From Acidobacteriota bacterium (GTDB lineage: Bacteria > Acidobacteriota > UBA890 > WLXD01), in the NCBI GenBank assembly GCA_963666055.2, contig CAXWPH010000004.1:1-35969 (forward strand): 35,969 nt of DNA. The letters are read 5' to 3'. The translations under genes and the position numbers were made by a program. The notes under the pieces are model-generated. The model was not told where the DNA came from, ran no database searches, and was given only the letters and a program-made list of their open reading frames with translations. The stretch's first letter is position 1, and the number at the start of each line of letters is the position of its first letter. Shown here piece after piece: positions 24,373-35,969 of the stretch.

Positions 24373-24702
24373 CTACATCTCCGGCGCGAACTGGAAGATC
24401 AACAAGATCGCAATCAGCAGCGCGTAGATCGCCAGTGACTCGATGAGCACCAAACCGAAGATCATCGAAGCCCTGATGGGACCTGCAGCGCTCGGGTTTC
24501 TTGCGATGCCTTCGAGAGCGGCGGCGATGGCGCGGCTCTGGGCGAGACCGCAACCAGCCGCTGCGATTGCCATACCCAAGCCCGCTGCGAGCGCGACCGA
24601 GCTGCCGACGTTGTAGTTGTTGGCGGTTTCCTGCGCCAATGCGAGGTTGGGGGTGAGTAGCGCGAACGCGGTGGCCGCGAGGAAGGCGAGCCGCTTGGAC
24701 AT
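24373..24702 (-). CDS. atpE: ATP synthase F0 subunit c
   Basis: Loop GIARNP and ion-binding IESLAIY. AAAGGAG RBS before the ATG at 24702 (109 aa). The ORF track start at 24999 is too early. Confidence 0.96.
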   Translation of the reverse strand: MSKRLAFLAATAFALLTPNLALAQETANNYNVGSSVALAAGLGMAIAAAGCGLAQSRAIAAALEGIARNPSAAGPIRASMIFGLVLIESLAIYALLIAILLIFQFAPEM

Positions 24703-24749
24703 CGAAATGCTCCTTTCCAGAGGGGGCCGGGCCGGACCAGGCTTGCGGC

Positions 24750-25445
24750 CTAGTGCCCGTGCTCCAGCGAGCCGGCGATGTAGAGCATCGACAGCATCAC
24801 GAAGACGAACGTCTGCATGAACGACACGAATACGCCTAGCGGCGCGAAGATCACCGGCAGGCCAATTGGTAGCAGGAAGAAGAAAACACCGGCGAGGGTG
24901 TGCTCGGCGAACATGTTTCCGAAAAGCCGGATCGACAGAGAGATGGGTCGTGACAGATGGCTGAGGATCTCGATTGGGATCATCAAGGGTGATAGCCACA
25001 CCGGGTCGCCGATGAACTGCTGCAAGTAGCGTGTTCCCTGTGCGCGGATGCCGACGAAATTGTAGATCAGGAACGAGCAGACGCCGAGCGCCGCTGTAGT
25101 GTTCAAGTCCGCGGTAGGTGGTTGCAACCCGGGGACGAAGCCCACCAAGTTCGACAGCAGGATAAACAGCGCGATCGGTCCCATCACCTTGGCGTACTTA
25201 CGGCTATTCTCGCCGATGAAGGCGTCGCACATGGTGTTGATCGACGCCACGCCGATCTCGAGCATCTGCTGTGCGGGGCCCGGGTTGTAGATCGAGAAGC
25301 GCCGCGCCAGCAAGGGTAGGGTCACCAGCGACAACGCCACCACGAACCACGCCATGACGGCCTGATCGCTGATGAACCCAGGGCCGAAGACGGCGTCAAG
25401 GCCGCCGTGCAGCCAGTTATAGAGGGCAGAGACCTCGTGCTCCAT
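24750..25445 (-). CDS. atpB: ATP synthase F0 subunit a
   Basis: Motifs NLVGFVPG, PTADLNTT, RPISLSIRLFGNM (essential Arg) and QTFVFVMLSMLY. Confidence 0.96.
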   Translation of the reverse strand: MEHEVSALYNWLHGGLDAVFGPGFISDQAVMAWFVVALSLVTLPLLARRFSIYNPGPAQQMLEIGVASINTMCDAFIGENSRKYAKVMGPIALFILLSNLVGFVPGLQPPTADLNTTAALGVCSFLIYNFVGIRAQGTRYLQQFIGDPVWLSPLMIPIEILSHLSRPISLSIRLFGNMFAEHTLAGVFFFLLPIGLPVIFAPLGVFVSFMQTFVFVMLSMLYIAGSLEHGH

Positions 25446-25462: not shown

Positions 25463-25864
25463 TTAGGAGCGGCGATCAGCGCCGATGGAGAGGTCGATCG
25501 CTTCCAGAAAGACCGCGATAACCAGAATCGAGAGCCCCAGGGCGACCGGAATCGGCCCCACGCCTGGCAGCAGGACGATAGCATAGAGTCCCATACCCAG
25601 CAACACATACCGGCCAAGCAGAAGCACCGCCTGGAGTGCTCCCGGCGCTTCCCGATCGGTCCCCAGGATGCCGTCCGCCGTTGCCACTAACCCCTTGAAA
25701 TTCAGTAACATGAGGATTCCAGACAGAAGCAGCCCAGCGACCTGAGCGAGCGACCATGTGGTGGCCCCGACGACGATCACCAGGGCGATAAGAGCGTTGA
25801 TCGAATTACGCCTCAGACGTCGAATCAGGGCGTCTGTTTTGTCCGTGGCGGGTGGTCTGCGCAT
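25463..25864 (-). CDS. atpI: ATP synthase subunit I (4-TM AtpI/UncI)
   Basis: About 4 hydrophobic segments (LMLLNFKGL, LLGRYVLL, ALGLSIL). Lies immediately upstream of atpB. Confidence 0.75.
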   Translation of the reverse strand: MRRPPATDKTDALIRRLRRNSINALIALVIVVGATTWSLAQVAGLLLSGILMLLNFKGLVATADGILGTDREAPGALQAVLLLGRYVLLGMGLYAIVLLPGVGPIPVALGLSILVIAVFLEAIDLSIGADRRS

Positions 25865-25885: not shown

Positions 25886-27367
25886 CTAGAAGCGCGACGC
25901 CACGATGTCGAGGAACTCGTCCTGCCGCCGTTGCGCCATCGCCGGAGACTCACCCAGGGTGATCACATCGAGCTTACCGACCGGCCGCAGGCAGCCCACG
26001 TTCAACACGATGCCCCATCCGTTACCCGTACGAGCGTCGAAAAGTACATCCGGGAGCTGTCGTACGAACTCGTCGACGCCAACGCCCTTGAGTCGATCGT
26101 CGTGCAGCACGCCGGCTACATAGGGCTGACGGCGATAGTCACCGAACAGGCGGTTCATCAAGCTCATGGGGGTGCTGGTCCCGCCCCACCGTCCATTACA
26201 CTCAGTGAACTTGATGGTGGCATTCGTGAAGTTCGAGCCGCACAGGATGGTGTCGAACGAGCAACGCCCGACGTAGTTGAGGAGTTGAAACAGCCGTCCC
26301 AGGAGCAGGCCCGCGGCGCCGATGCGTCGCTGCAAGGTGTGGGGCAGCTGGCTGGGCACGCTGCCTTGAAACACCTGTTCCTGTCCGGGGTAGAAACGTT
26401 GGTCGAAGATCCCCTCCAGCAGCGGCGGCCCGCCGTCGAGTGGGGGTATCCAAAGCTGGATGCTGGGCGATCCGACAACATCCGTTCTCCATGGCTCCAC
26501 CGAGACAGGTGGCGACTCAGCCTGCCAGCCGTGGCCGACGAGCCAGTCGGCGACGAACGCTTCGAGCGACTCTGGTGATCGACTCAGGACATCTGCCGCC
26601 TCGACGATCTCGGTACCCATGCCGGAGGCGCTATCGGCGAGCTTGATGGCCACGCGAGGCGCGGTCGCCGCCACCCTCGCCAGGTCTTCGATGATCACCC
26701 TGGTGCAGGTACCAGTGTATGACTCGAGCGTCCACGCCGGCCCCAGGGCCTGCTCGACGACCGATCCGAACCAAACCTTGTTGTTCGCCAGCTCGGTGAG
26801 GCGGGGCGGCGGCCCCAGCACGCGAACCCGCCGCCCAGTGCGCTCGGCGAGCCGCTTCCCGAGCTCCCAAGCTGCTTCCAGCCCCATGTACGGATGGATC
26901 CAGAAGTTGTCGTGTGCCTCTCGAGCTGCGCTAGCGATCCGCTGTCGCGCGACGTCGTCGCTGAGAAGTGCCTCGAACGCCGCGTAGTTTGGTGCACCAG
27001 GTGCTGGAGCCGCGCGTACGTACTGCGACTTACCCAACCCGAGGTAATGATCCAGGTAGTCGGCGTATCCGTCGATCGGCGAGAACGTTCCGGCGACGAG
27101 ATCACCGTCACATTGACGCACGAATGCTCTGCTCGGGTAGTAGTCGATGCCGCTGATATCGCGGACGTGGGCGATCAAGGAGAAGTCGTCCACATGCAGC
27201 GTGCGCGCGTTCCGATCGGGGAGCGCGTCGGGCATCTGATTCCGGTAGCGGTCGCGATCGGTCGCCAGCCGTTCGTCGCCACGCCCGAGCGCGTCGGCGA
27301 TACGCTGCAGCCGGCGATCGTCCGGCTCGTCGACCTCGATGAGCCGAACCGGGGTCAGAGCGATCAT
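25886..27367 (-). CDS. ATP-grasp-fold ligase with a preATP-grasp-like N terminus (resembles PGM1-related peptide ligases)
   Basis: Motifs LANNKVWF, IKLADSASGMGT, SPSIQLWI, YVGRCSFD and FTECNGRWGGTS (ExNxR of ATP-grasp enzymes). Probable ATG at 27367 after GAGG. Confidence 0.7.
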   Translation of the reverse strand: MIALTPVRLIEVDEPDDRRLQRIADALGRGDERLATDRDRYRNQMPDALPDRNARTLHVDDFSLIAHVRDISGIDYYPSRAFVRQCDGDLVAGTFSPIDGYADYLDHYLGLGKSQYVRAAPAPGAPNYAAFEALLSDDVARQRIASAAREAHDNFWIHPYMGLEAAWELGKRLAERTGRRVRVLGPPPRLTELANNKVWFGSVVEQALGPAWTLESYTGTCTRVIIEDLARVAATAPRVAIKLADSASGMGTEIVEAADVLSRSPESLEAFVADWLVGHGWQAESPPVSVEPWRTDVVGSPSIQLWIPPLDGGPPLLEGIFDQRFYPGQEQVFQGSVPSQLPHTLQRRIGAAGLLLGRLFQLLNYVGRCSFDTILCGSNFTNATIKFTECNGRWGGTSTPMSLMNRLFGDYRRQPYVAGVLHDDRLKGVGVDEFVRQLPDVLFDARTGNGWGIVLNVGCLRPVGKLDVITLGESPAMAQRRQDEFLDIVASRF

Positions 27368-27472
27368 GCAGCCTCTGGCTGTTGAAACGGTGCGTGCAGT
27401 GTCGTCGCAACGGTTATCGCATCGTTGACGACCAACGACAAAGCATAAGTGCGCAACCCCCGGTCGCCGCAA

Positions 27473-27506
27473 CCAGGCCCACAACACTTCCACCACGGCC
27501 TGCTAG
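27473..27506 (-). repeat. Dispersed CTAG-anchored repeat, copy 3, followed by a second CTAG (CTAGCTAG at 27503-27510)
   Basis: CCAGGCCCACAACACTTCCACCACGGCCTGCTAG is the reverse complement of 4544-4577 with 2 mismatches. Confidence 0.9.
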
Positions 27507-27552
27507 CTAGGCTGTGCCGCGTATCAAGCAGTGGAAACAATCAGGAGAGAAC

Positions 27553-28233
27553 ATGCGCACGAGAATCATCGTCATGATCATGTCAGCCACCCTACTGTGC
27601 GGCCTGGTCGCCGAGGCGAGCGCCACCCCGAGCCGGGCCGTGTATCGCTATCGCCTCACGCCTGCGGACGGGCAAACGGGTAGCGCCACCGTGGTCGTGC
27701 GCCGACGTGGATTGAAGGTGAAGATCCGCGGCGGTGCGCCGCACACCCTATATACGGTCTGGGTGGATCACCGCAGCCGAGCTACCGGAAACCTCGCTGC
27801 CGACTACCCGCTCGACGATGGCGCATTGGAGCGCGGTGTCGCACCGGCCTTCGCTACCGACGCGCCGGTGTATGAGGGCATGTTGCCCGATCTCAACGCC
27901 CTCATCACGGACGCCAACGGAAACGGCCTTCTCGATGTAGAGCTTGACTACGGCCTGCTGGAAGCCGGCTCGAGCCCGGTCGTCGGTGGTGACCTCGCGA
28001 CCCAGGGTGCCAATGTCGTCGGTGGCTACTGGCTGCGGCGATACGGAACCGACCCGGCGACAGCCGCCTCGGTGCAGCTAACCGACCCCAAGAGCGGGTC
28101 GCCGTTGCTGCAGCGCAGTACGCCACAGGGCATTACGATCGTGTCGCACCCGGATACGGTTACCCATGGCCACAGCCCGGGAGTGGGCGGTACCGATCAC
28201 TTCTCGGCCTTCAAGGGCGACTTCGACTGCTAG
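27553..28233 (+). CDS. Secreted hypothetical protein with a His-rich C terminus
   Basis: AGGAG RBS and ATG at 27553. Signal peptide ending AEASA-T. Beta-rich sequence with C-terminal ITIVSHPDTVTHGHSPG...DH. Confidence 0.75.
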   Translation: MRTRIIVMIMSATLLCGLVAEASATPSRAVYRYRLTPADGQTGSATVVVRRRGLKVKIRGGAPHTLYTVWVDHRSRATGNLAADYPLDDGALERGVAPAFATDAPVYEGMLPDLNALITDANGNGLLDVELDYGLLEAGSSPVVGGDLATQGANVVGGYWLRRYGTDPATAASVQLTDPKSGSPLLQRSTPQGITIVSHPDTVTHGHSPGVGGTDHFSAFKGDFDC

Positions 28234-28282: not shown

Positions 28283-28558
28283 TCAGGTGTCGTCCGACCT
28301 GTCGCTCGCATCGGTTCGCTCGCTCGCCTCGAGAGCGGCGCCCGAGCGCAGCAGATTGCGGATCGCGGCGACGACTCCGAAGCCGAAGCCCAGCAGCGCC
28401 AGCCACGGCGCCGTGCCGAGACGGCCGTCGAGCCAGTAGCCGCCCATGAACCCGAGGCCGATCGCCACCGGGAACATTGCCCCCACATGCCCCACCAAGG
28501 TGAGCTGTCGCGCCCAGCCACGCGCGTCGTCTCGCTGCGGGTGATGCGATGCGGCCAT
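28283..28558 (-). CDS. atpZ: AtpZ/AtpI family 2-TM protein (first gene of F0 operons)
   Basis: GFMGGYWLDGRLGTAPWLALLGFGFGVVAAIRNL matches the family pattern GYWLD...T.P.....G...G.... Confidence 0.85.
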   Translation of the reverse strand: MAASHHPQRDDARGWARQLTLVGHVGAMFPVAIGLGFMGGYWLDGRLGTAPWLALLGFGFGVVAAIRNLLRSGAALEASERTDASDRSDDT

Positions 28559-28578: not shown

Positions 28579-30051
28579 TCAGAACTGAAGGGCGGCGTGC
28601 TGTACCCAGTCGACCAATGGCGTGGCCCAGATGATGCCCGCAACGGTGACCAAGGCACAGATACCGAGCGCGACCTGCAATGGAATCGACCCGACGAGCG
28701 TTGTCTCGGCGTCGGCCTCGCTCATGAGCATCGCCTTGGCGATGCGTAAATAGTAGAAAAGCGAGATGGCTGCGTTGACCGCACCCACGACGGCCAGCCA
28801 GCCATAGCCGGCGTCGATGGCGGCACCGAATACGTACCACTTGCCGAGAAAGCCGATGGTCGGCGGAATGCCTCCCAGCGACAGAAGAAAGATCAGCATC
28901 GCCGCAGTTGCTGCGCCCGAGCGGTGCACCAACCCGTTGAAGTCGTCAACGCTCTCGCCGGCGAGTCCGTTGCGGCGGAGCATGATCACCATCGACCAAG
29001 CCCCCACGTTCATGAACGTGTAGGCGAACAGGTAGTACATCGTGGCGGCGATGCCGTACGACGTGCCCGCCGCCACCCCGACCAGCGCGTATCCCGCGTG
29101 GGCGACGCTCGAGTAGGCAAACATTCGCTTGACGTTGCCCTGCGATAGCGCCGCGACGTTACCAAACGTCATCGTAACGGCGGCCAACAATGCCAGCAGC
29201 GATGTCCACGATGCCGTAATCGGCGAAAAGGCGACGAACAGGATACGGATCATCATGGCGAACGCCGCCGCTTTGGAGGCTACCGAGATGAACAGGGTGA
29301 CCGGGGTCGCGGCGCCGGTGTAAGCGTCTGGCGCCCACAGGTGGAAAGGAACAGCGGCGACCTTGAATCCCAGCGACACGATCAACAGGATCAGGCCCAG
29401 CAGCAGGATCGGATCGCCCGCCAGGTTGCTGTCGGCCAGCGAGGTGCCGATTTCCGCAAGGCTCGTCGTTCCGACGACAGCGTAGATCAGCGAGAGCGAG
29501 TAGATGAAAATGCCCGAGGACAAGCCGCCAAGGATGAAATACTTCAGGCCTGCCTCGTTCGAGCGCCTATCCTTCTTGAGGTAGCCGACCAGCACGTAGA
29601 CCGACAACGCCTGCAGCTCGAGCCCAACGAAGATGCTGATCAGGTCGGCGCCGCGGGCCATGATCATCATCCCGACGAGCGCCACCAGAATGAAGAAGTA
29701 GTACTCGGGGAGGTGCGCCTCCTGGTCTTCCAAGAAGCGGACCGAGGCGGCAACGGCGAGGGCGGCGGTGACCAGAAACAGCACCGCGAAGAAGCTCCCG
29801 AAGGCATCGACCGCGAGCTGGCCGGAGAAAGCCATGGTCACACCGCGCTCAATCTGCGGCGACAGCCCCAAGACCACGCCGGCGAGAGCGCCGAGCACCG
29901 TGAGCAGAGTCACCCAGGCGAACATCCGCCCGCTGGCCCGCGTTCGAGGCGCAAAGGCACCCCAAACCAAGACGACGAGCGATCCGATCGTAAGGGTTAT
30001 CTCGGCGTTCAGCGACACCAGGTCGGAGCTTGAAATCGGGAAGCTATCCAT
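28579..30051 (-). CDS. nuoN: NADH-quinone oxidoreductase subunit N
   Basis: Motifs GLELQAL, SNEAGLKYFILG, FKVAAVPFHLWAPDAY and KRMFAYSSVAHAGY. Confidence 0.96.
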   Translation of the reverse strand: MDSFPISSSDLVSLNAEITLTIGSLVVLVWGAFAPRTRASGRMFAWVTLLTVLGALAGVVLGLSPQIERGVTMAFSGQLAVDAFGSFFAVLFLVTAALAVAASVRFLEDQEAHLPEYYFFILVALVGMMIMARGADLISIFVGLELQALSVYVLVGYLKKDRRSNEAGLKYFILGGLSSGIFIYSLSLIYAVVGTTSLAEIGTSLADSNLAGDPILLLGLILLIVSLGFKVAAVPFHLWAPDAYTGAATPVTLFISVASKAAAFAMMIRILFVAFSPITASWTSLLALLAAVTMTFGNVAALSQGNVKRMFAYSSVAHAGYALVGVAAGTSYGIAATMYYLFAYTFMNVGAWSMVIMLRRNGLAGESVDDFNGLVHRSGAATAAMLIFLLSLGGIPPTIGFLGKWYVFGAAIDAGYGWLAVVGAVNAAISLFYYLRIAKAMLMSEADAETTLVGSIPLQVALGICALVTVAGIIWATPLVDWVQHAALQF

Positions 30052-30054
30052 ACC

Positions 30055-31665
30055 CTAGCCTTCCTCGGTCTCCGCCTGAGCAACGGGCTCCTCGATCAGT
30101 GGCGGGTCGATTCCATCGGCCATGCGTAGCGCCGCGAGGCTGGGCAAGGCTGGCGTCGGGATCCCGCTACCCTCGAAGTAGCCGGGTTTCACGCGCTCGA
30201 CGATCGCGTTGACCGGTGGCTCGAGCGTATCTAGCACCGGCGACGGGTACAGGCCCATCCACACCGCGAGGACGACTAGCGGCAGCAGCGTGGCTACCTC
30301 GCGCATGCTGAGGTCGCTGAGGCCGGCGATCTTGTCGTCTTTTACTTCGCCGAACATGACTCGTTGGAAGAGCCACAGCAGGTAGGCTGCGGCGAGCACG
30401 ATCCCCCAGACCGACCAATAGACATATACCGGGTTCCACTCGAATGCGCCGATCAGAATCAAGAACTCGCCGACGAAGCCGTTGAGCCCTGGAAGGCCCA
30501 TCGACGACAGCGCGATGATGGCGAACAACACCGTGAATACCGGCATGACCTTGGCCAGCCCCGAGTACGCGGCGATCTCTCGCGTGTGCGTGCGTTCGTA
30601 CATCAAGCCGACGATCAGGAACAGCCCGCCGGTGGAGACTCCGTGATTGAGCATCTGCAGAACACTGCCCTGCACGCCGATCGGGTTGAGAGCGAAGATC
30701 CCCAACGTGATGAAGCCCATGTGCGAGACCGATGAGTACGCCACCAGGCTCTTCCAGTCCTTTTGCATCAGTGCCACCAGGGCACCGTAGATGATCGCAA
30801 TGATCGACAGCACGGCGATCATCGGCGCGAACTGCACCGATGCCTGCGGCATGATCGGCAGCGACAGGCGTACGAATCCGTAGGCGCCCATCTTCAGCAG
30901 CACGGCCGCCAGGATCACCGAAGCGGCAGTGGGAGCCTGCACGTGGGCGTCCGGGAGCCAGGTGTGGAACGGCCACATGGGCACTTTGATCGCGAAGGCG
31001 AGGAAGAAGCCCAGGAATATCCACCACTGCATGTCAGCGGGTACCGACAGCTGGTAGTAGGCCAGGATGTTGGTGGTCCACTCACCGGTGACGGTGTGGT
31101 TGTAGAAGTACAGCGCCAGAATACCGACCAGCATCAGCACCGAGCCGGCCAGCGTGTACAGGAAGAACTTGATGGCCGCGTACAGGCGGTTCTTGTCGCC
31201 CCAGATACCGATGAGGAAATACATCGGCACCAGCATGACCTCCCAGAAGATGTAGAAGAGGAAGAAGTCGAAGGCGATGAACACGCCCAGCATGCCGCTC
31301 TGCAGGATCATCAAGTAGGCGTAATATTCCTTGTTCCGCGTCTCGATGTAATTCCACGACGACAGGCAAGCGATCGAGCCGAGCAGCGTGGTCAGCAGAA
31401 TGAGGCACAGGGAGATGCCATCGATGCCGGTGAAGTACTCCACACCAATCGATGGAATCCACTGCAACCGCGTCACGTGTTGCAACTCGGCGGTGCCGAA
31501 ATCGAAGCCCTGTAGTAGCAGCAACGAGAGCAGAAAATCGACGAACAGAACGATGTTCGCGGTCCACTTGATGGCGTTGTCGCGTTCCTTACCGAGCAGC
31601 AGCGCGATCGCGAGCGCGCCCACCGCCGGCAAGAAGACGACCAGGGTGAGGAGATTTCCGCTCAT
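30055..31665 (-). CDS. nuoM: NADH-quinone oxidoreductase subunit M
   Basis: Motifs FYIFWEVMLVPMY, AIKFFLYTL, KVPMWPFHTWLPDAHVQAPT and LPGLNGFVGEF. ATG at 31665 after GAGG; the ORF track start is too early. Confidence 0.96.
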   Translation of the reverse strand: MSGNLLTLVVFLPAVGALAIALLLGKERDNAIKWTANIVLFVDFLLSLLLLQGFDFGTAELQHVTRLQWIPSIGVEYFTGIDGISLCLILLTTLLGSIACLSSWNYIETRNKEYYAYLMILQSGMLGVFIAFDFFLFYIFWEVMLVPMYFLIGIWGDKNRLYAAIKFFLYTLAGSVLMLVGILALYFYNHTVTGEWTTNILAYYQLSVPADMQWWIFLGFFLAFAIKVPMWPFHTWLPDAHVQAPTAASVILAAVLLKMGAYGFVRLSLPIMPQASVQFAPMIAVLSIIAIIYGALVALMQKDWKSLVAYSSVSHMGFITLGIFALNPIGVQGSVLQMLNHGVSTGGLFLIVGLMYERTHTREIAAYSGLAKVMPVFTVLFAIIALSSMGLPGLNGFVGEFLILIGAFEWNPVYVYWSVWGIVLAAAYLLWLFQRVMFGEVKDDKIAGLSDLSMREVATLLPLVVLAVWMGLYPSPVLDTLEPPVNAIVERVKPGYFEGSGIPTPALPSLAALRMADGIDPPLIEEPVAQAETEEG

Positions 31666-31679
31666 GGGTGCCTCGTTCT

Positions 31680-33905
31680 CTACAAGAACATGTAGGCGCT
31701 GACCAGCATGAACAGCCCGAGGGCGATGACCAGCGCGTAGTTCTGTACATAACCGGTTTGCAGGGCGCGGAAGATCCACGAACCTGCCCAGAACGTGTTT
31801 CCGACTCCGTTGACTGTGCCGTCGACGACGCGATCGTCGAACTCGGTCGACGCGGTTGCAGCCTGTTTCGTAGACTCGGCGACCCCGTTGACGATGCCGT
31901 CGACAACTGCGTCGTCGAGCACCCAAAGGGCGGTCCCGAGGTCCTTCGTGCGGTTGACGAACAGCGCGTCATAGAGCTCGTCGACCCAGTACTTGTTCCA
32001 CAATGTTCGGTGGATCCCGGAGAAACGAGCCAACGGCTCCTCGCTCACACCGGCTCCATACATGCGGTACGCGATTCCCATGCCCGCCAGCGCCACCGTG
32101 ACCGAAGTCAGCATCAGGATCCACTCGAGTCTCGTGTGATCCTCCGCGTCCTGCGCAGCCACCAGGCGGGCCGATGCCTGGGTCGCTTCCGACAGCATCG
32201 CACTGGCGGCGACGATGCGGCCGTCGCCGTCGAGCGTTCCGAGTACCTGTGTTTCGGCAGTCACCGTCGGCGCCGCGCGATCGGCTACTTCGGCGGAGGC
32301 ACCGTGCTCGGCTTCGCTGAGGCCTCCGGTGATCGGCTCGAGCCAGCGGCCGATATCGATGCTGTCGTGCAATGCTCCGAGCGGGCCTATCTGTAAGTTG
32401 GCGGGGATTCCCACGTAGCCACCGATGACCGCTAGCAGCGCCAGGGCTACCAGCGGCACGGTGATCAGGCGCGAGCTTTCGTGGGCATGTGCCTCGACGT
32501 GCTCGTCCATGCGCGACTCCCCGTAAAACGTCACCAGCAGCATGCGCATCATGTAGAACGCGGTCATGCCGGCGACCAGCGTCCCCACGGCCCAGAGCCA
32601 GGGGGAGCCGTTGGGACCGGTCCAGGCGTACCACAACACCTCGTCCTTGGAGAAGAAGCCCGCCAGCCCCGGGATACCGGCGATGGCCAGAGTACCCACC
32701 AGGAACGTCTTGTGCGTCACCGGCATGTACTTGCGGACATTGCCCATCTTCCACATGTCGAGCTCGCCACCCAGGGCGTGCATTACCGAGCCCGCCGCGA
32801 GGAACAGCAGCGCCTTGAAGAAGGCGTGCGTCATCAGGTGGAACACACCGACCGCGTACGCCCCGACACCGCACGCCAGGAACATGTAGCCGAGCTGGCT
32901 GATCGTGGAGTAGGCGAGCACGCGTTTTATGTCGTTTTGGACCATTGCGATGGAGGCAGCAAATAATGCGGTGAGCGCGCCGATGACCGCCACGACGGTC
33001 ATGACTGTTGGCGACATCGAGAACAGCACGTTGGAGCGCACCACCATGTAGACGCCCGCGGTCACCATCGTAGCGGCGTGGATCAAAGCCGACACCGGTG
33101 TCGGCCCCTCCATGGCGTCGGGCAGCCAGGTAAACAGTGGAATTTGCGCGCTCTTGCCGGTGGCGCCGATGAACAGCATCAGGGTGATGAACGTGATCAC
33201 CCCGGCCCCGACCTCGTAGTTGGCGGCCGCGAGCTCGAAGACTTCGTCGTAGTCCAGCGTGCCGAAGGTGAAGAAGATGGTGAACATGCCGAGCAGGAAA
33301 GCGGCATCACCGATGCGGTTCACCACGAACGCCTTCTTGGCGGCGTCGCCGGCCGACTTCTTGGTGTAGTAGTAGCCGATCAGCAAATACGAGCACAGCC
33401 CGACGCCCTCCCAGCCAATAAACATCATGGCGTAGGAGTTGCCGAGCACGAGCACCAGCATGAAGGCGGCGAACAGGTTCAGGTAGGTGAAGAACCTGTA
33501 GAAGCCAGGGTCTGGCGGATCAAGCGCCATGTATCCGATGGCGTAGACGTGGATCAAGAACCCGACCCCGGTGATTATCAGCACCATGATGGCCGACAGG
33601 GGGTCGAACTGGAAACCGAAGGGCACCACGAACCGGGCAGCGTCGACCCCGGCTTCGTTGTCGTGCATGTGGCCCCACGACGCGTCTATCCAGTCGTACA
33701 GGACCACCTCCACGTGGCGGTCGGCGGGCTCCATACCGACGAGGCCGAGGAACGAGCCGGCGCCGATGATAAACGCCAGCAGCATGCACAAGCTGGCAAG
33801 GCCGCCGGTGATCAGCTCGGAGCGTATGAAACGCGACCCCAGCAGCCCGTTGATGAGCATGCCGGCAAGTGGCAGAAGCGGGATAAGCCAGAAGTACTCG
33901 ATCAC
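31680..33905 (-). CDS. nuoL: NADH-quinone oxidoreductase subunit L (lengthened lateral helix)
   Basis: Motifs GWEGVGLCSYLLIG, GKSAQIPLFTWLPDAMEGPTPVSALIHAATM, HAFFKALLFL and LQTGYVQNYA. Confidence 0.97.
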   Translation of the reverse strand: MIEYFWLIPLLPLAGMLINGLLGSRFIRSELITGGLASLCMLLAFIIGAGSFLGLVGMEPADRHVEVVLYDWIDASWGHMHDNEAGVDAARFVVPFGFQFDPLSAIMVLIITGVGFLIHVYAIGYMALDPPDPGFYRFFTYLNLFAAFMLVLVLGNSYAMMFIGWEGVGLCSYLLIGYYYTKKSAGDAAKKAFVVNRIGDAAFLLGMFTIFFTFGTLDYDEVFELAAANYEVGAGVITFITLMLFIGATGKSAQIPLFTWLPDAMEGPTPVSALIHAATMVTAGVYMVVRSNVLFSMSPTVMTVVAVIGALTALFAASIAMVQNDIKRVLAYSTISQLGYMFLACGVGAYAVGVFHLMTHAFFKALLFLAAGSVMHALGGELDMWKMGNVRKYMPVTHKTFLVGTLAIAGIPGLAGFFSKDEVLWYAWTGPNGSPWLWAVGTLVAGMTAFYMMRMLLVTFYGESRMDEHVEAHAHESSRLITVPLVALALLAVIGGYVGIPANLQIGPLGALHDSIDIGRWLEPITGGLSEAEHGASAEVADRAAPTVTAETQVLGTLDGDGRIVAASAMLSEATQASARLVAAQDAEDHTRLEWILMLTSVTVALAGMGIAYRMYGAGVSEEPLARFSGIHRTLWNKYWVDELYDALFVNRTKDLGTALWVLDDAVVDGIVNGVAESTKQAATASTEFDDRVVDGTVNGVGNTFWAGSWIFRALQTGYVQNYALVIALGLFMLVSAYMFL

Positions 33906-33912
33906 GACGCGG

Positions 33913-34221
33913 CTATCCCTCCAGCAGGTGCACGTCGTCGACGTTCACCGTCTGCGCGTTGCGGAACATCGCAATCACCAGCCCGAGCCCGATTGCCGCC
34001 TCGGCGGCGGCGACGGTGATCGTGAAGATCGTGAAGATCTGCCCGGCAAGATCCGGTCGAAAGCGGGCCACCGCCACCAAGTTGATGTTGGCGGCATTGA
34101 AGATCAGCTCGAGACACATCAACACCATGATGACGTTACGGCGTACGAGTACTCCGATCACGCCGATGCCGAACAGCACCGCCGACAGCAGCAAGTAGTG
34201 GCCGAGCCCCAGCGTACCCAC
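33913..34221 (-). CDS. nuoK: NADH-quinone oxidoreductase subunit K
   Basis: Motifs RRNVIMVLMCLELIFNA and AAAEAAIGL. Confidence 0.96.
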   Translation of the reverse strand: MGTLGLGHYLLLSAVLFGIGVIGVLVRRNVIMVLMCLELIFNAANINLVAVARFRPDLAGQIFTIFTITVAAAEAAIGLGLVIAMFRNAQTVNVDDVHLLEG

Positions 34222-34222
34222 G

Positions 34223-34738
34223 TCAGACTCGCTTCTGAGCCAAGTAGATCGCGCCGATCATCGCCACCAGCAGCAACATCGATGCGATCTCGAAGGGCAA
34301 CAGGAAGTCGGTGTAGAGCGACATCCCGATCGTCTCGGTGTTGCCCTGTTCGACGGCTCGCAGAACAGTCTCGGCTTGCTCGGGCGCTACCGCGAGCGCG
34401 CCGGCACCACCCCAGAGCAAGTAGCCGATCTCGGCTACCAAGACCAGCAGCATCGCTCCGGCCGGTAACCATTGCCGGTGCAGATACTCGCCCTCGTTGA
34501 CCTCGTTGAGGTTCACCAGCATGACCACGAACAAGAACAGCACCACGATGCCGCCAGCATAAACCAGGATCTGTACCGCGGCCACGAACTCCGCCTGCAA
34601 CAGAATGAACAGCGCGCCTACGCCTATGAACGACACCACCATGTAGACGATGGAGTGCACCAACTGGCGGCTCGTGACCATGAGCAGGGCGCTCACGATC
34701 ACGATCGAGGCGATGATATAGAAGGCGATGCTTTCCAT
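34223..34738 (-). CDS. nuoJ: NADH-quinone oxidoreductase subunit J
   Basis: Motifs AEFVAAVQILVYAGGIVVLFLFVVML and LPFEIASMLLLVAMIGAI. ATG at 34738. Confidence 0.95.
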   Translation of the reverse strand: MESIAFYIIASIVIVSALLMVTSRQLVHSIVYMVVSFIGVGALFILLQAEFVAAVQILVYAGGIVVLFLFVVMLVNLNEVNEGEYLHRQWLPAGAMLLVLVAEIGYLLWGGAGALAVAPEQAETVLRAVEQGNTETIGMSLYTDFLLPFEIASMLLLVAMIGAIYLAQKRV

Positions 34739-34746
34739 ACGGCAGG

Positions 34747-35202
34747 CTAACGCTCGTAGTGCACGATGTGGTGGCCGCTGTCGAGGATGCGAAGATCGTG
34801 GATCGAGTCCGCGCGGTTGTAGACCGCGGCCTCGAACTCGTTGCTGTGGTAGATCGAATCCACCGGGCAAACTTCTTCGCACAGGCCACAGAACAGACAG
34901 CGCGCGTGGTCGAGATAGAAGTAGGTGGCGTACTTGCCACCTTTGCCCCTGACGTAGCCGCGCTCACCGTCGAGCACGATGCAGTTGGCCGGGCAAATCT
35001 TCTCGCACAGGTAGCAGGCGATGCAGGTGGACTCGTCGACACGCAGGATGCCGCGGTAATTCGGATGGACCGACTCGCGCTCCAGCGGATACTGCACCGT
35101 GACCTTGGGGCGGAACGCGTACTTGAGCGTGAGCCACATTCCCTTGAGCAGTTCCACCAGCAGGAAGCTACTTAGGAGGCTCTTCTTGGGTGCCGAGGAC
35201 AT
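34747..35202 (-). CDS. nuoI: NADH-quinone oxidoreductase subunit I
   Basis: Two 4Fe-4S motifs, CIACYLCEKICP and CLFCGLCEEVCP, plus TVQYP. Probable ATG at 35202. Confidence 0.95.
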   Translation of the reverse strand: MSSAPKKSLLSSFLLVELLKGMWLTLKYAFRPKVTVQYPLERESVHPNYRGILRVDESTCIACYLCEKICPANCIVLDGERGYVRGKGGKYATYFYLDHARCLFCGLCEEVCPVDSIYHSNEFEAAVYNRADSIHDLRILDSGHHIVHYER

Positions 35203-35234
35203 GGTTGCCGCCTGTGACGACTGGTGAGCGGGCA

Positions 35235-35969
35235 TTAGGCTACCAGAAGCATGACGAGCCCGGTGACGAGCAGATTTGCGATTGCCAGCGGGATAAGGGA
35301 CTTCCAGTTCAGCCGCATCAGCTGATCGTAGCGGTAGCGTGGGAAGGTACCGCGGATCCAGATGTAGACGAACAGGAACGTGGCGACCTTGAGAATGAAC
35401 CAGGCACCGCTGGGGACCAGATCGAGGAATGCGAGCGCCTCGACGCTCGGGAACGGCCGCAGCCAGCCGCCCCAGAAGAGCGTCACGTTGGCCGCTGCCA
35501 TCACCAGCATCGCAGTGTACTCGCCAAGGAAGAAAAGCGCCCAGCGCATTCCGGAGTACTCGGTGAAGAACCCGGCGACGAGCTCCGAATCGGCCTCCGC
35601 CATGTCGAACGGGGGTCGGTTGGTCTCGGCCACCATGGCGATCGTGAAGATTCCCCAGGCTACCGGCTGCACGAACACGAACCAGACTCCCATGTCGCGC
35701 TGTGCTTCAACGATGCCTACCATCGACAGCGTACCGGCGACCATGAGCGCCGAGAGCACGGCAAAGGTCAGCGCTATCTCGTACGACACCATCTGCGCGG
35801 CGGCGCGTAGCGCTCCCAGCAGTGGATACTTCGAATTGCTCGACCAGCCGCCGAGGATAACGCCGTAGGTGCCCAGACCGCTGATCGCGAAAATTAGCAG
35901 GATGCCGACGTTCACGTCGGCGATCACGCCCGGGATGTGGTACCCGAAAAGCGTGATTCCTTCGCCGAA
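35235..35969 (-). CDS. nuoH: NADH-quinone oxidoreductase subunit H (partial, 5' end beyond the window)
   Basis: Motifs GWSSNSKYPLLGALR, AETNRPPFDMAEADSELVAG and PRYRYDQLM. The frame stays open to the window edge. Confidence 0.96.
   Translation of the reverse strand, partial: FGEGITLFGYHIPGVIADVNVGILLIFAISGLGTYGVILGGWSSNSKYPLLGALRAAAQMVSYEIALTFAVLSALMVAGTLSMVGIVEAQRDMGVWFVFVQPVAWGIFTIAMVAETNRPPFDMAEADSELVAGFFTEYSGMRWALFFLGEYTAMLVMAAANVTLFWGGWLRPFPSVEALAFLDLVPSGAWFILKVATFLFVYIWIRGTFPRYRYDQLMRLNWKSLIPLAIANLLVTGLVMLLVA

Follow-up and report, generated by a model that had tools for sequence, protein, structure and literature searches.

A tandem repeat lengthens the lateral helix of NuoL in an acidobacterial complex I operon with a single nuoM gene

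Complex I variants that carry a second nuoM gene (2M complexes) have a lengthened NuoL, according to passages in two papers that cite Chadwick et al. 2018, ISME J 12:2668 (PMC9040806, PMC6606698); 2M complex I is also mentioned by Steiner and Sazanov 2020 (PMC7419157). The 2M form of Nitrospira clade 3 is also described there as being without nuoE and nuoF (Mundinger et al. 2019, PMC6606698), and the same text reports the proposal that four-pump complexes link quinone to low-potential ferredoxin. A 26-residue insertion in the lateral helix (HL) of NuoL has been noted in two clusters of "Ca. Manganitrophaceae", Complex_I_1 and Complex_I_2 (Yu et al. 2022, PMC9040806). In the text on these clusters they are not counted among those with extra pumping subunits, and the authors leave two explanations open: the complexes can take an extra pump, or they are in transition. 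Green complex I, in which two MrpD-like subunits replace NuoL, is described in the same paper (PMC9040806). Here we describe a NuoL with a tandemly duplicated lateral helix unit, encoded in a complex I operon with a single nuoM gene on contig CAXWPH010000004.1 of an Acidobacteriota bacterium (assembly GCA_963666055.2). The window is the whole of this contig (contig C4), 35,969 bases long. The genome is 5.7 Mb in 15 contigs and is 95.7% complete.

The complex I genes of the window lie on the minus strand in the order H-I-J-K-L-M-N, with one PF00361 gene between nuoL and nuoN. The pump genes and the helical segments of NuoL are as follows, with amino acids abbreviated as aa and transmembrane helices as TM.

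31680..33905, minus strand: nuoL, 741 aa, with TM15, the lateral helix HL and TM16 at its C-terminal end
31752..31991, minus strand: lateral helix HL proper, residues 639-718, modelled as a continuous 80-residue helix
31839..31916, minus strand: HL repeat unit 1, residues 664-689, beginning DDAVVDGIVNGVA
31761..31838, minus strand: HL repeat unit 2, residues 690-715, beginning DDRVVDGTVNGVG; the extra unit relative to solved NuoLs
31686..31748, minus strand: TM16, residues 720-740, the anchor that ends HL
30055..31665, minus strand: nuoM, 536 aa, the sole M gene of the operon
28579..30051, minus strand: nuoN, 490 aa

The duplication in the lateral helix is real and old. The motif D-D-x-V-V-D-G-x-V-N-G-V begins at NuoL residues 664 and 690, an offset of exactly 26 codons, and the duplicated cores run from position 31916 down to 31800 (codons 31914-31916 to 31800-31802). 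The 13-residue cores are identical at 10/13 residues and 29/39 bases, and the full 26-residue units at 10/26 residues. Shuffling the protein 20 times gives a best 13-residue self-match of only 6-7/13, so the repeat is not a product of chance. Its age follows from conservation at the order level and from the divergence of the two DNA copies. A preliminary description of this DNA had reported a 26-residue tandem duplication at 31800..31916, near the C terminus of a NuoL in an operon of order L-M-N with a single nuoM. The translation reads as quoted in that description, its coordinates agree exactly with the core codons, and by both Pfam and NCBIfam the genes in succession are NuoL, NuoM and NuoN. 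The placement needs adjustment, as the duplicated site is the lateral helix before TM16 and not the C terminus itself.

The nuoL product scores 700.8 bits with NCBIfam NF005141 (cut-off 556) and 692.7 bits with TIGR01974 (cut-off 407.5), and is also matched by Pfam PF00361 and PF00662. Besides passing the cut-offs of these curated models, it has the TM15-HL-TM16 extension and a position between nuoK and nuoM, as expected of a NuoL. The nuoM product reaches 636.7 bits with TIGR01972 and 592.1 bits with NF004499 (cut-off 585), and the nuoN product 415.5 bits with TIGR01770 (cut-off 332.6).

The extra HL unit is absent from all solved NuoLs: a search of all PDB chains matched five distinct NuoL-type sequences, none of which has it. 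The solved enzymes of T. thermophilus (4HE8), E. coli (7Z7S/3RKO), M. smegmatis (8E9G) and P. denitrificans (8QBY) share the NuoL fold and the anchor and TM16 motifs with the window protein, but they have L-M-N with a short helix of one HL unit, whereas the window NuoL has two. HMMER places both window repeats on one and the same segment of 8e9g_L, and likewise of 6hum_F. In an alignment of the C-terminal 160 residues of NuoLs from the same phylum, 14 of them long and 7 short, the sole helix length difference between long and short is a clean gap of 26-27 columns between the motif D-G and the following V-N. The length of HL was measured from motif to motif; from the anchor K-Y-x-V-D-E-x-Y to the Q-x-G-x4-Y that precedes TM16 there are 78 residues here, compared with 53-55 in short NuoLs. 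Both motifs are kept in the long and the short forms (in the second, Gly and Tyr are invariant and Gln is present in at least 90% of these 14 long and 7 short sequences), which suggests that both helix ends dock as in the solved enzymes. The HL anchor aspartates D642, D669 and D695 are spaced 26-27 residues apart.

An AlphaFold2 model of NuoL, made from a 76-row alignment, has a mean predicted local distance difference test score (pLDDT) of 81.6, with values of ~66-75 in HL. DSSP assigns helices at residues 587-616, 639-718 and 720-740, the second of them unbroken and without a hairpin. The NuoL of a true 2M operon (locus L094, L-M-M-N) is likewise predicted with a single helix at 577-651 and TM16 at 658-678. 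The core of the window model, to residue 655, superposes on residues 1-554 of E. coli NuoL at 1.8 Å. Fold comparison with solved NuoL chains gives Z ~49, and no alignment with a low root-mean-square deviation extends to TM16. In the literature library that was searched, no structure of a 2M or long-helix complex I was found.

The long helix is the rule among close relatives of this bacterium. When the best NuoL of each of 30 related genomes was taken, the helix was long in 19/19 family and order loci (the window's own included), and at the level of the phylum it was long in 3/11 loci and short in 8/11. A scan of one genome per species, with the C-terminal alignment as query, gave 80 loci with 10-kb flanks, chosen by likeness to a mostly long-helix query so that proportions among them are not prevalences. 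The NuoL C terminus is present in 79, of which 76 have a long helix (78-89 residues) and three a short one (3/79). One full-length nuoM followed by nuoN is found in 56 of the 76 long-helix loci, and two full-length nuoM genes in 11 (nine with nuoN seen, two cut before nuoN). The remainder comprise one locus with broken M genes (L101), one with a split M, one with L and M in a single open frame, three with L-M without N, and three cut too early for the layout to be read. The two-nuoM loci belong to Nitrospirota, Thermodesulfobacteriota, a "Deltaproteobacteria" record and Anaerolineae. Single-M long-helix loci occur in all sampled Acidobacteriota classes and in records of Tectomicrobia, Aquificota, Methylomirabilota, Verrucomicrobiota, Binatia, Myxococcota, Eisenbacteria and Limnocylindria.

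Judged from these gene layouts, the long helix with a single nuoM is a widespread bacterial kind found in about ten phyla, and the window is an ordinary member of it. The preliminary description had treated a long helix beside one nuoM as special, and this does not stand given how common the layout is among the family and order relatives and the scanned loci. It had also asked whether relatives with the duplication carry two nuoM genes, and among the long-helix loci of the scan 11 have two full-length genes and 56 have one followed by nuoN. Commonness of the duplication in single-M lineages with standard subunit stoichiometry had been named as grounds for giving up a fourth pump module; the first half of this, commonness among single-M loci, is what was found. 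The comparison with 2M complexes is borne out in that an insertion of 26 residues, equal to the window's in length and position, is present in all 11 two-nuoM loci and in L101. What the window lacks relative to 2M complex I is the defining second nuoM, as the operon has a single nuoM and no orphan copy occurs elsewhere in the genome.

The Complex_I_1 and Complex_I_2 clusters of Manganitrophaceae share with the window an HL insertion of ~26 residues next to one nuoM. They belong to Nitrospirota and are described, in the text devoted to them, as canonical in gene content and order. The operon type of the window is without nuoEFG and may differ from them in this. The mismatch between a long helix and a single nuoM is thus already in print, briefly and for one family; it is extended here to Acidobacteriota and about nine further phyla.

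Several loci of the scan differ in detail. The NuoLs of L089 (8378-10480) and L118 (8324-10525) have motif spacings of 87 and 89 residues. Another 9-11 residues are inserted in these proteins, within the first HL segment or within unit 1, so the length of the strap is not strictly quantised. Three Acidobacteriota loci (L071, L079 and L118) have a long-helix nuoL-nuoM pair with neither nuoN nor any nuo genes upstream. Immediately after the pair in L071 (8402-17423) comes an operon for ATP synthase subunits a, b, delta, alpha and gamma. Only the NuoM of L043 is closer to that of the window than the NuoMs of L071 and L079. Seven loci (L066, L072, L081, L086, L087, L117 and L121, in Terriglobia, Acidiferrales, Udaeobacter and Limnocylindria records) have two sets of nuo pump genes arranged tail to tail. 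In six of them one NuoL has the long helix and the other, from a convergent L-M-N, the short one (54-55 residues); in L081 the second M and N are present and their NuoL lies beyond the end of the locus. Records of Acidobacteriota, Verrucomicrobiota and Chloroflexota contain near-identical double-set sequences, which points to transfer or mis-binning.

Both HL units are conserved. For this comparison 76 full-length long-helix NuoLs, 52-94% identical to the window's, were chosen from 121 proteins. Residues D664, D669, G670 and V672 of unit 1 are invariant among them, as are D690, D695 and V698 of unit 2, with G696 in 99%. The ratio of nonsynonymous to synonymous substitution (dN/dS), taken against three genes of the same genus, is 0.07-0.16 for unit 1 and 0.03-0.65 for unit 2 (small counts). 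These substitution patterns show purifying selection on both HL units.

Trees of NuoL were built without the helix columns, and their root is uncertain, so changes were not split into gains and losses. With 104 rows, helix length changes at least 8 times, at least 5 of these changes are forced by well-supported branches, and short forms are scattered among long ones. A mixture-model tree of 61 rows needs a minimum of 7 changes, of which 3 or more are forced, and the same rows give 9 changes without the mixture model. In a NuoM tree (95 rows, quick search), 59/62 NuoMs from single-M long-helix operons form one clade with a support of 91. This clade is part of neither of the two Nitrospira M clades, proximal or distal, and the distal M of that genus forms a long basal branch. 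In the Anaerolineae locus L059 the two M genes group as sisters (support 100). M1 and M2 of L070 and L094 pair by position, a duplication separate from that in L059, and the Nitrospira M pairs are separate again. On this tree nuoM has been duplicated at least twice independently on a long-helix background. Repeated duplication would be easy to understand if M already occupied two positions.

These data bear on the alternative given in the preliminary description, that the extension is a relic. In that case an ancestor with two nuoM genes lost one of them, and the lengthened helix was left over without function. The existence of 2M operons with an equal insertion in several phyla would fit such a history, as would the lability of the helix state on the NuoL tree. 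However, both units keep their invariant Asp, Gly and Val residues even in sequences only 52% identical to the window's NuoL, and with dN/dS well below 1 in both a relic is unlikely. The single clade of single-M NuoMs apart from both Nitrospira M clades also speaks against it, as does the M pair of L059, which is a recent lineage-specific duplication. We give the loss of a second nuoM as the origin of a functionless helix hardly any credence.

If the long helix does hold a fourth pump module, that module might be sought elsewhere in the genome, and a nuoM- or mrp-like paralog had been suggested. The genome has 10 PF00361 matches in three clusters. Three are nuoL, nuoM and nuoN of the window. 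Four lie on contig C3, in a cluster with the "green" layout nuoJ-K-MrpD-like-MrpD-like(with HL)-M-N-A-C-D-E/F-G-H, and three on contig C15, in an Mrp antiporter cluster. No orphan antiporter-like gene is present among the 10 matches of this 95.7%-complete genome, and the suggested paralog is thus not borne out as a free-standing gene, all seven further antiporter-like genes being inside the green-type or the Mrp cluster. A fourth module could still be borrowed from these clusters, as the NuoM or an MrpD-like subunit of the C3 cluster or as an MrpD of the C15 cluster. Seven candidate genes are at hand, and the near-complete genome G004 of the same genus likewise has ten matches in a 3+4+3 arrangement. 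Yet each of the seven sits in a cluster with NuoJ/K or MrpC of its own, and the C3 cluster is further equipped with nuoA, C, D, EF, G and H. In other long-helix genomes fewer genes are available for borrowing (5-6 PF00361 matches). An 8.8-Mb chromosome has six, as two L-M-N sets. A 9.3 Mb genome has five, an L-M-N set and two genes ~3 kb apart that may be an Mrp-like pair, to judge from open-frame lengths only. Two sister-genus genomes have five each, and the one extra gene that was checked is MrpA-like. The trait is thus conserved across genomes with very different numbers of spare pump genes. We regard borrowing as very unlikely. No complete long-helix genome with exactly three pump genes was found among the genomes examined; G027, a phylum-level genome with only three PF00361 matches, has a short helix.

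Green complex I reaches four pump modules by another route, and the window operon differs from it in having a true NuoL and three pump genes. The green-type layout of this genome is that of contig C3, in which the HL-bearing subunit has a short helix. This second complex I cluster is complete (C3:110800-125100 of this genome, G000; L011 and beyond), with MrpD-like subunits of 485 aa and 589 aa and a fused nuoE/F. Genomes G002, G003 and G004 of the same genus show PF00361 matches that correspond to it.

We propose that the single NuoM is built in twice, so that one nuoM gene would give an L-M-M-N arm. The helix rise is 1.5 Å per residue, so 26 residues add ~39 Å, which is about the width of one antiporter-like subunit. 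The extra ~39 Å of the lateral clamp helix would hold a fourth pump module between NuoL and NuoN. Each HL step of 26-27 residues would span one antiporter-like subunit and the conserved TM16 would still dock on NuoN, in which case a subunit-sized space would have to be filled. The strap would span three subunits after NuoL and not two, because the anchors recur every 26-27 residues and both end motifs are kept. A second copy of NuoM is the likeliest filler because there is one nuoM and, in several genomes, nothing to borrow. We put at roughly 0.4 the probability that the extra unit holds a fourth module, most likely a second copy of the single NuoM. Several observations were counted in favour of two NuoMs. 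Helix length tracks the downstream pump gene count elsewhere: in the C3 cluster, M and N come after the 589-aa HL-bearing MrpD-like subunit, and its spacing is short, 52 residues compared with 78 here. Further points are the equal insertion in all of the two-nuoM loci, the invariant residues and low dN/dS of both units, the end motifs kept in long and short forms, the continuous helix modelled both here and in a true 2M NuoL, the independent nuoM duplications on a long-helix background, and an operon type without the NADH module. A complex prediction for two NuoM copies (residues 1-495, 43-row alignment), run without controls, scored 0.00 and counts neither for nor against binding.

Several points weigh against two NuoMs. 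We know of no precedent for one antiporter-like gene product in two positions of one complex. The nuoM and nuoN genes are translationally coupled, the nuoN start overlapping the nuoM stop by 4 bases, and there is no sign of a 2:1 dosage. The AlphaFold2 model is of a single chain and is blind to partners, and its pLDDT in HL is only ~70; the two-NuoM stoichiometry, at the probability given, is drawn from sequence comparison and such single-chain models. The way in which the 80 loci were chosen also has to be set against it. Finally, helix length flips repeatedly on the NuoL tree without a change in gene content. The extra unit may therefore be cheap to gain and lose, as expected if it is not tied to architecture.

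There is a different explanation, which we consider quite possible although short of probable. The complex would have three pumps (L-M-N, 1:1:1), and the extra helical unit would be functional and accommodated otherwise. It could form a bulge, follow another path along the arm, carry TM16 past NuoN towards NuoK/J/A, or make contact with something else, for example a second complex or an accessory protein that faces the lipid. The 56 of 76 long-helix loci that encode exactly L-M-N speak for three pumps, as do the repeated flips of helix length, which leave the pump genes unchanged. In 62 loci the 3.5 kb that follow nuoN were searched for a conserved gene of a large membrane protein and none was present; only small ATP synthase F0 genes recur there. 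Harder to reconcile with three pumps is the length of the unit, which matches both the interval between the other HL anchor points and the insertion found in true 2M operons. Both units keep matching invariant residues, so both probably face one kind of surface. Whether the helix is long or short, the pre-TM16 Gly and Tyr are invariant and the Gln nearly so, which speaks against docking at a new site, and AlphaFold2 predicts neither a break nor a hairpin in HL.

The proposal of a twice-used NuoM can be carried further, if tentatively. The lateral helix could act as a molecular ruler by which one nuoM supplies two adjacent pumps, giving a four-pump enzyme that moves ~5 H+ per 2 e- from 11 genes, and the repeated, independent nuoM duplications of '2M' operons could represent later divergence of a subunit that already held both positions. 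The number of antiporter-like modules sets the protons moved per electron pair, and so determines how much energy is gained or what reverse electron flow costs. If there are four modules, five rather than four protons would be pumped per two electrons, and a large share of soil Acidobacteriota together with several other phyla would deviate from the textbook stoichiometry of complex I. The lateral helix would then be an assembly ruler, and one gene would supply two positions in one complex. If there are three modules, the lateral helix would have a second, undescribed role. Taken by itself the window is an ordinary finding, one more member of a widespread and structurally unexplained kind.

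The NADH module is missing from this operon type. In this genome nuoA to nuoD sit at the end of contig C9, and the junction between nuoD and nuoH falls in the contig break between that end and the window contig, which ends inside nuoH. The only PF01512 (NuoF) match of the genome is in the C3 cluster. In G004, the near-complete genome of the same genus, the gene order is B-C-D-H-I-J-K-L(741 aa)-M-N-atpZ, and nuoH comes immediately after nuoD. The same passage from D to H, without an E, F or G match, is found in 47/48 single-M long-helix loci with enough upstream sequence, the exception being L106. By gene content the operon type of the window is an 11-subunit complex I without the N-module (NADH module). 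The 11-subunit complex I is described as widespread and as having no assigned electron donor (Moparthi and Hägerhäll 2011, PMC3144371). The window type resembles it, in the features given there, by having nuoA-D and H-N and no nuoEFG in the operon. The passages on this form make no mention of HL length, whereas here the 11-subunit layout accompanies the long helix in all but one of the informative loci.

The remaining complex I genes of the window, and a segment of NuoL outside the duplication, are as follows.

33913..34221, minus strand: nuoK, Pfam PF00420 (E = 2.8e-30)
34223..34882, minus strand: nuoJ as an open reading frame (ORF), Pfam PF00499 over residues 64-214
34747..35235, minus strand: nuoI, Pfam 4Fe-4S domains
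35235..35969, minus strand: nuoH, 5' end lost at the contig end, Pfam PF00146 at profile positions 86-297 only
32163..32321, minus strand: disordered Ala/Glu-rich insertion between TM14 and TM15 of NuoL, residues 529-581, pLDDT <50

The true start of nuoJ is probably further downstream than the start of its ORF, because the ORF overlaps nuoI. The TM14-TM15 insertion (~80 residues) accounts for most of the extra length of the 741-aa NuoL. It is present but poorly conserved in the family and order relatives, column entropy peaks over the loop at residues 505-590, and we take this loop to be periplasmic.

Genes for ATP synthase follow nuoN. On the minus strand there are atpZ (28283-28558, PF09527), atpI (25463-25864), atpB (24750-25445) and atpE (within 24373-24999). 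Two ORFs without a Pfam match lie between atpZ and atpI, one of 239 aa on the plus strand with a signal-like N terminus (27514-28233) and one of 536 aa on the minus strand (25886-27496). Clusters of blast matches in the 62 related loci were read as AtpB-like (30 loci), AtpE-like (30), AtpZ-like (23) and AtpI-like (22) proteins. In these loci the atpZ-like ORFs have a median offset of 49 nt after nuoN, and the atpI-like ORFs one of 239 nt. The atpF, atpF' and atpH genes of this genome are on contig C15 beside the Mrp cluster. That cluster (C15:1949700-1957300; L012) encodes MrpE, MrpG, MbhD/E-like, MnhB and MrpC-like proteins and three PF00361 subunits, of which one of 619 aa bears HL, and it lies near parA/parB.

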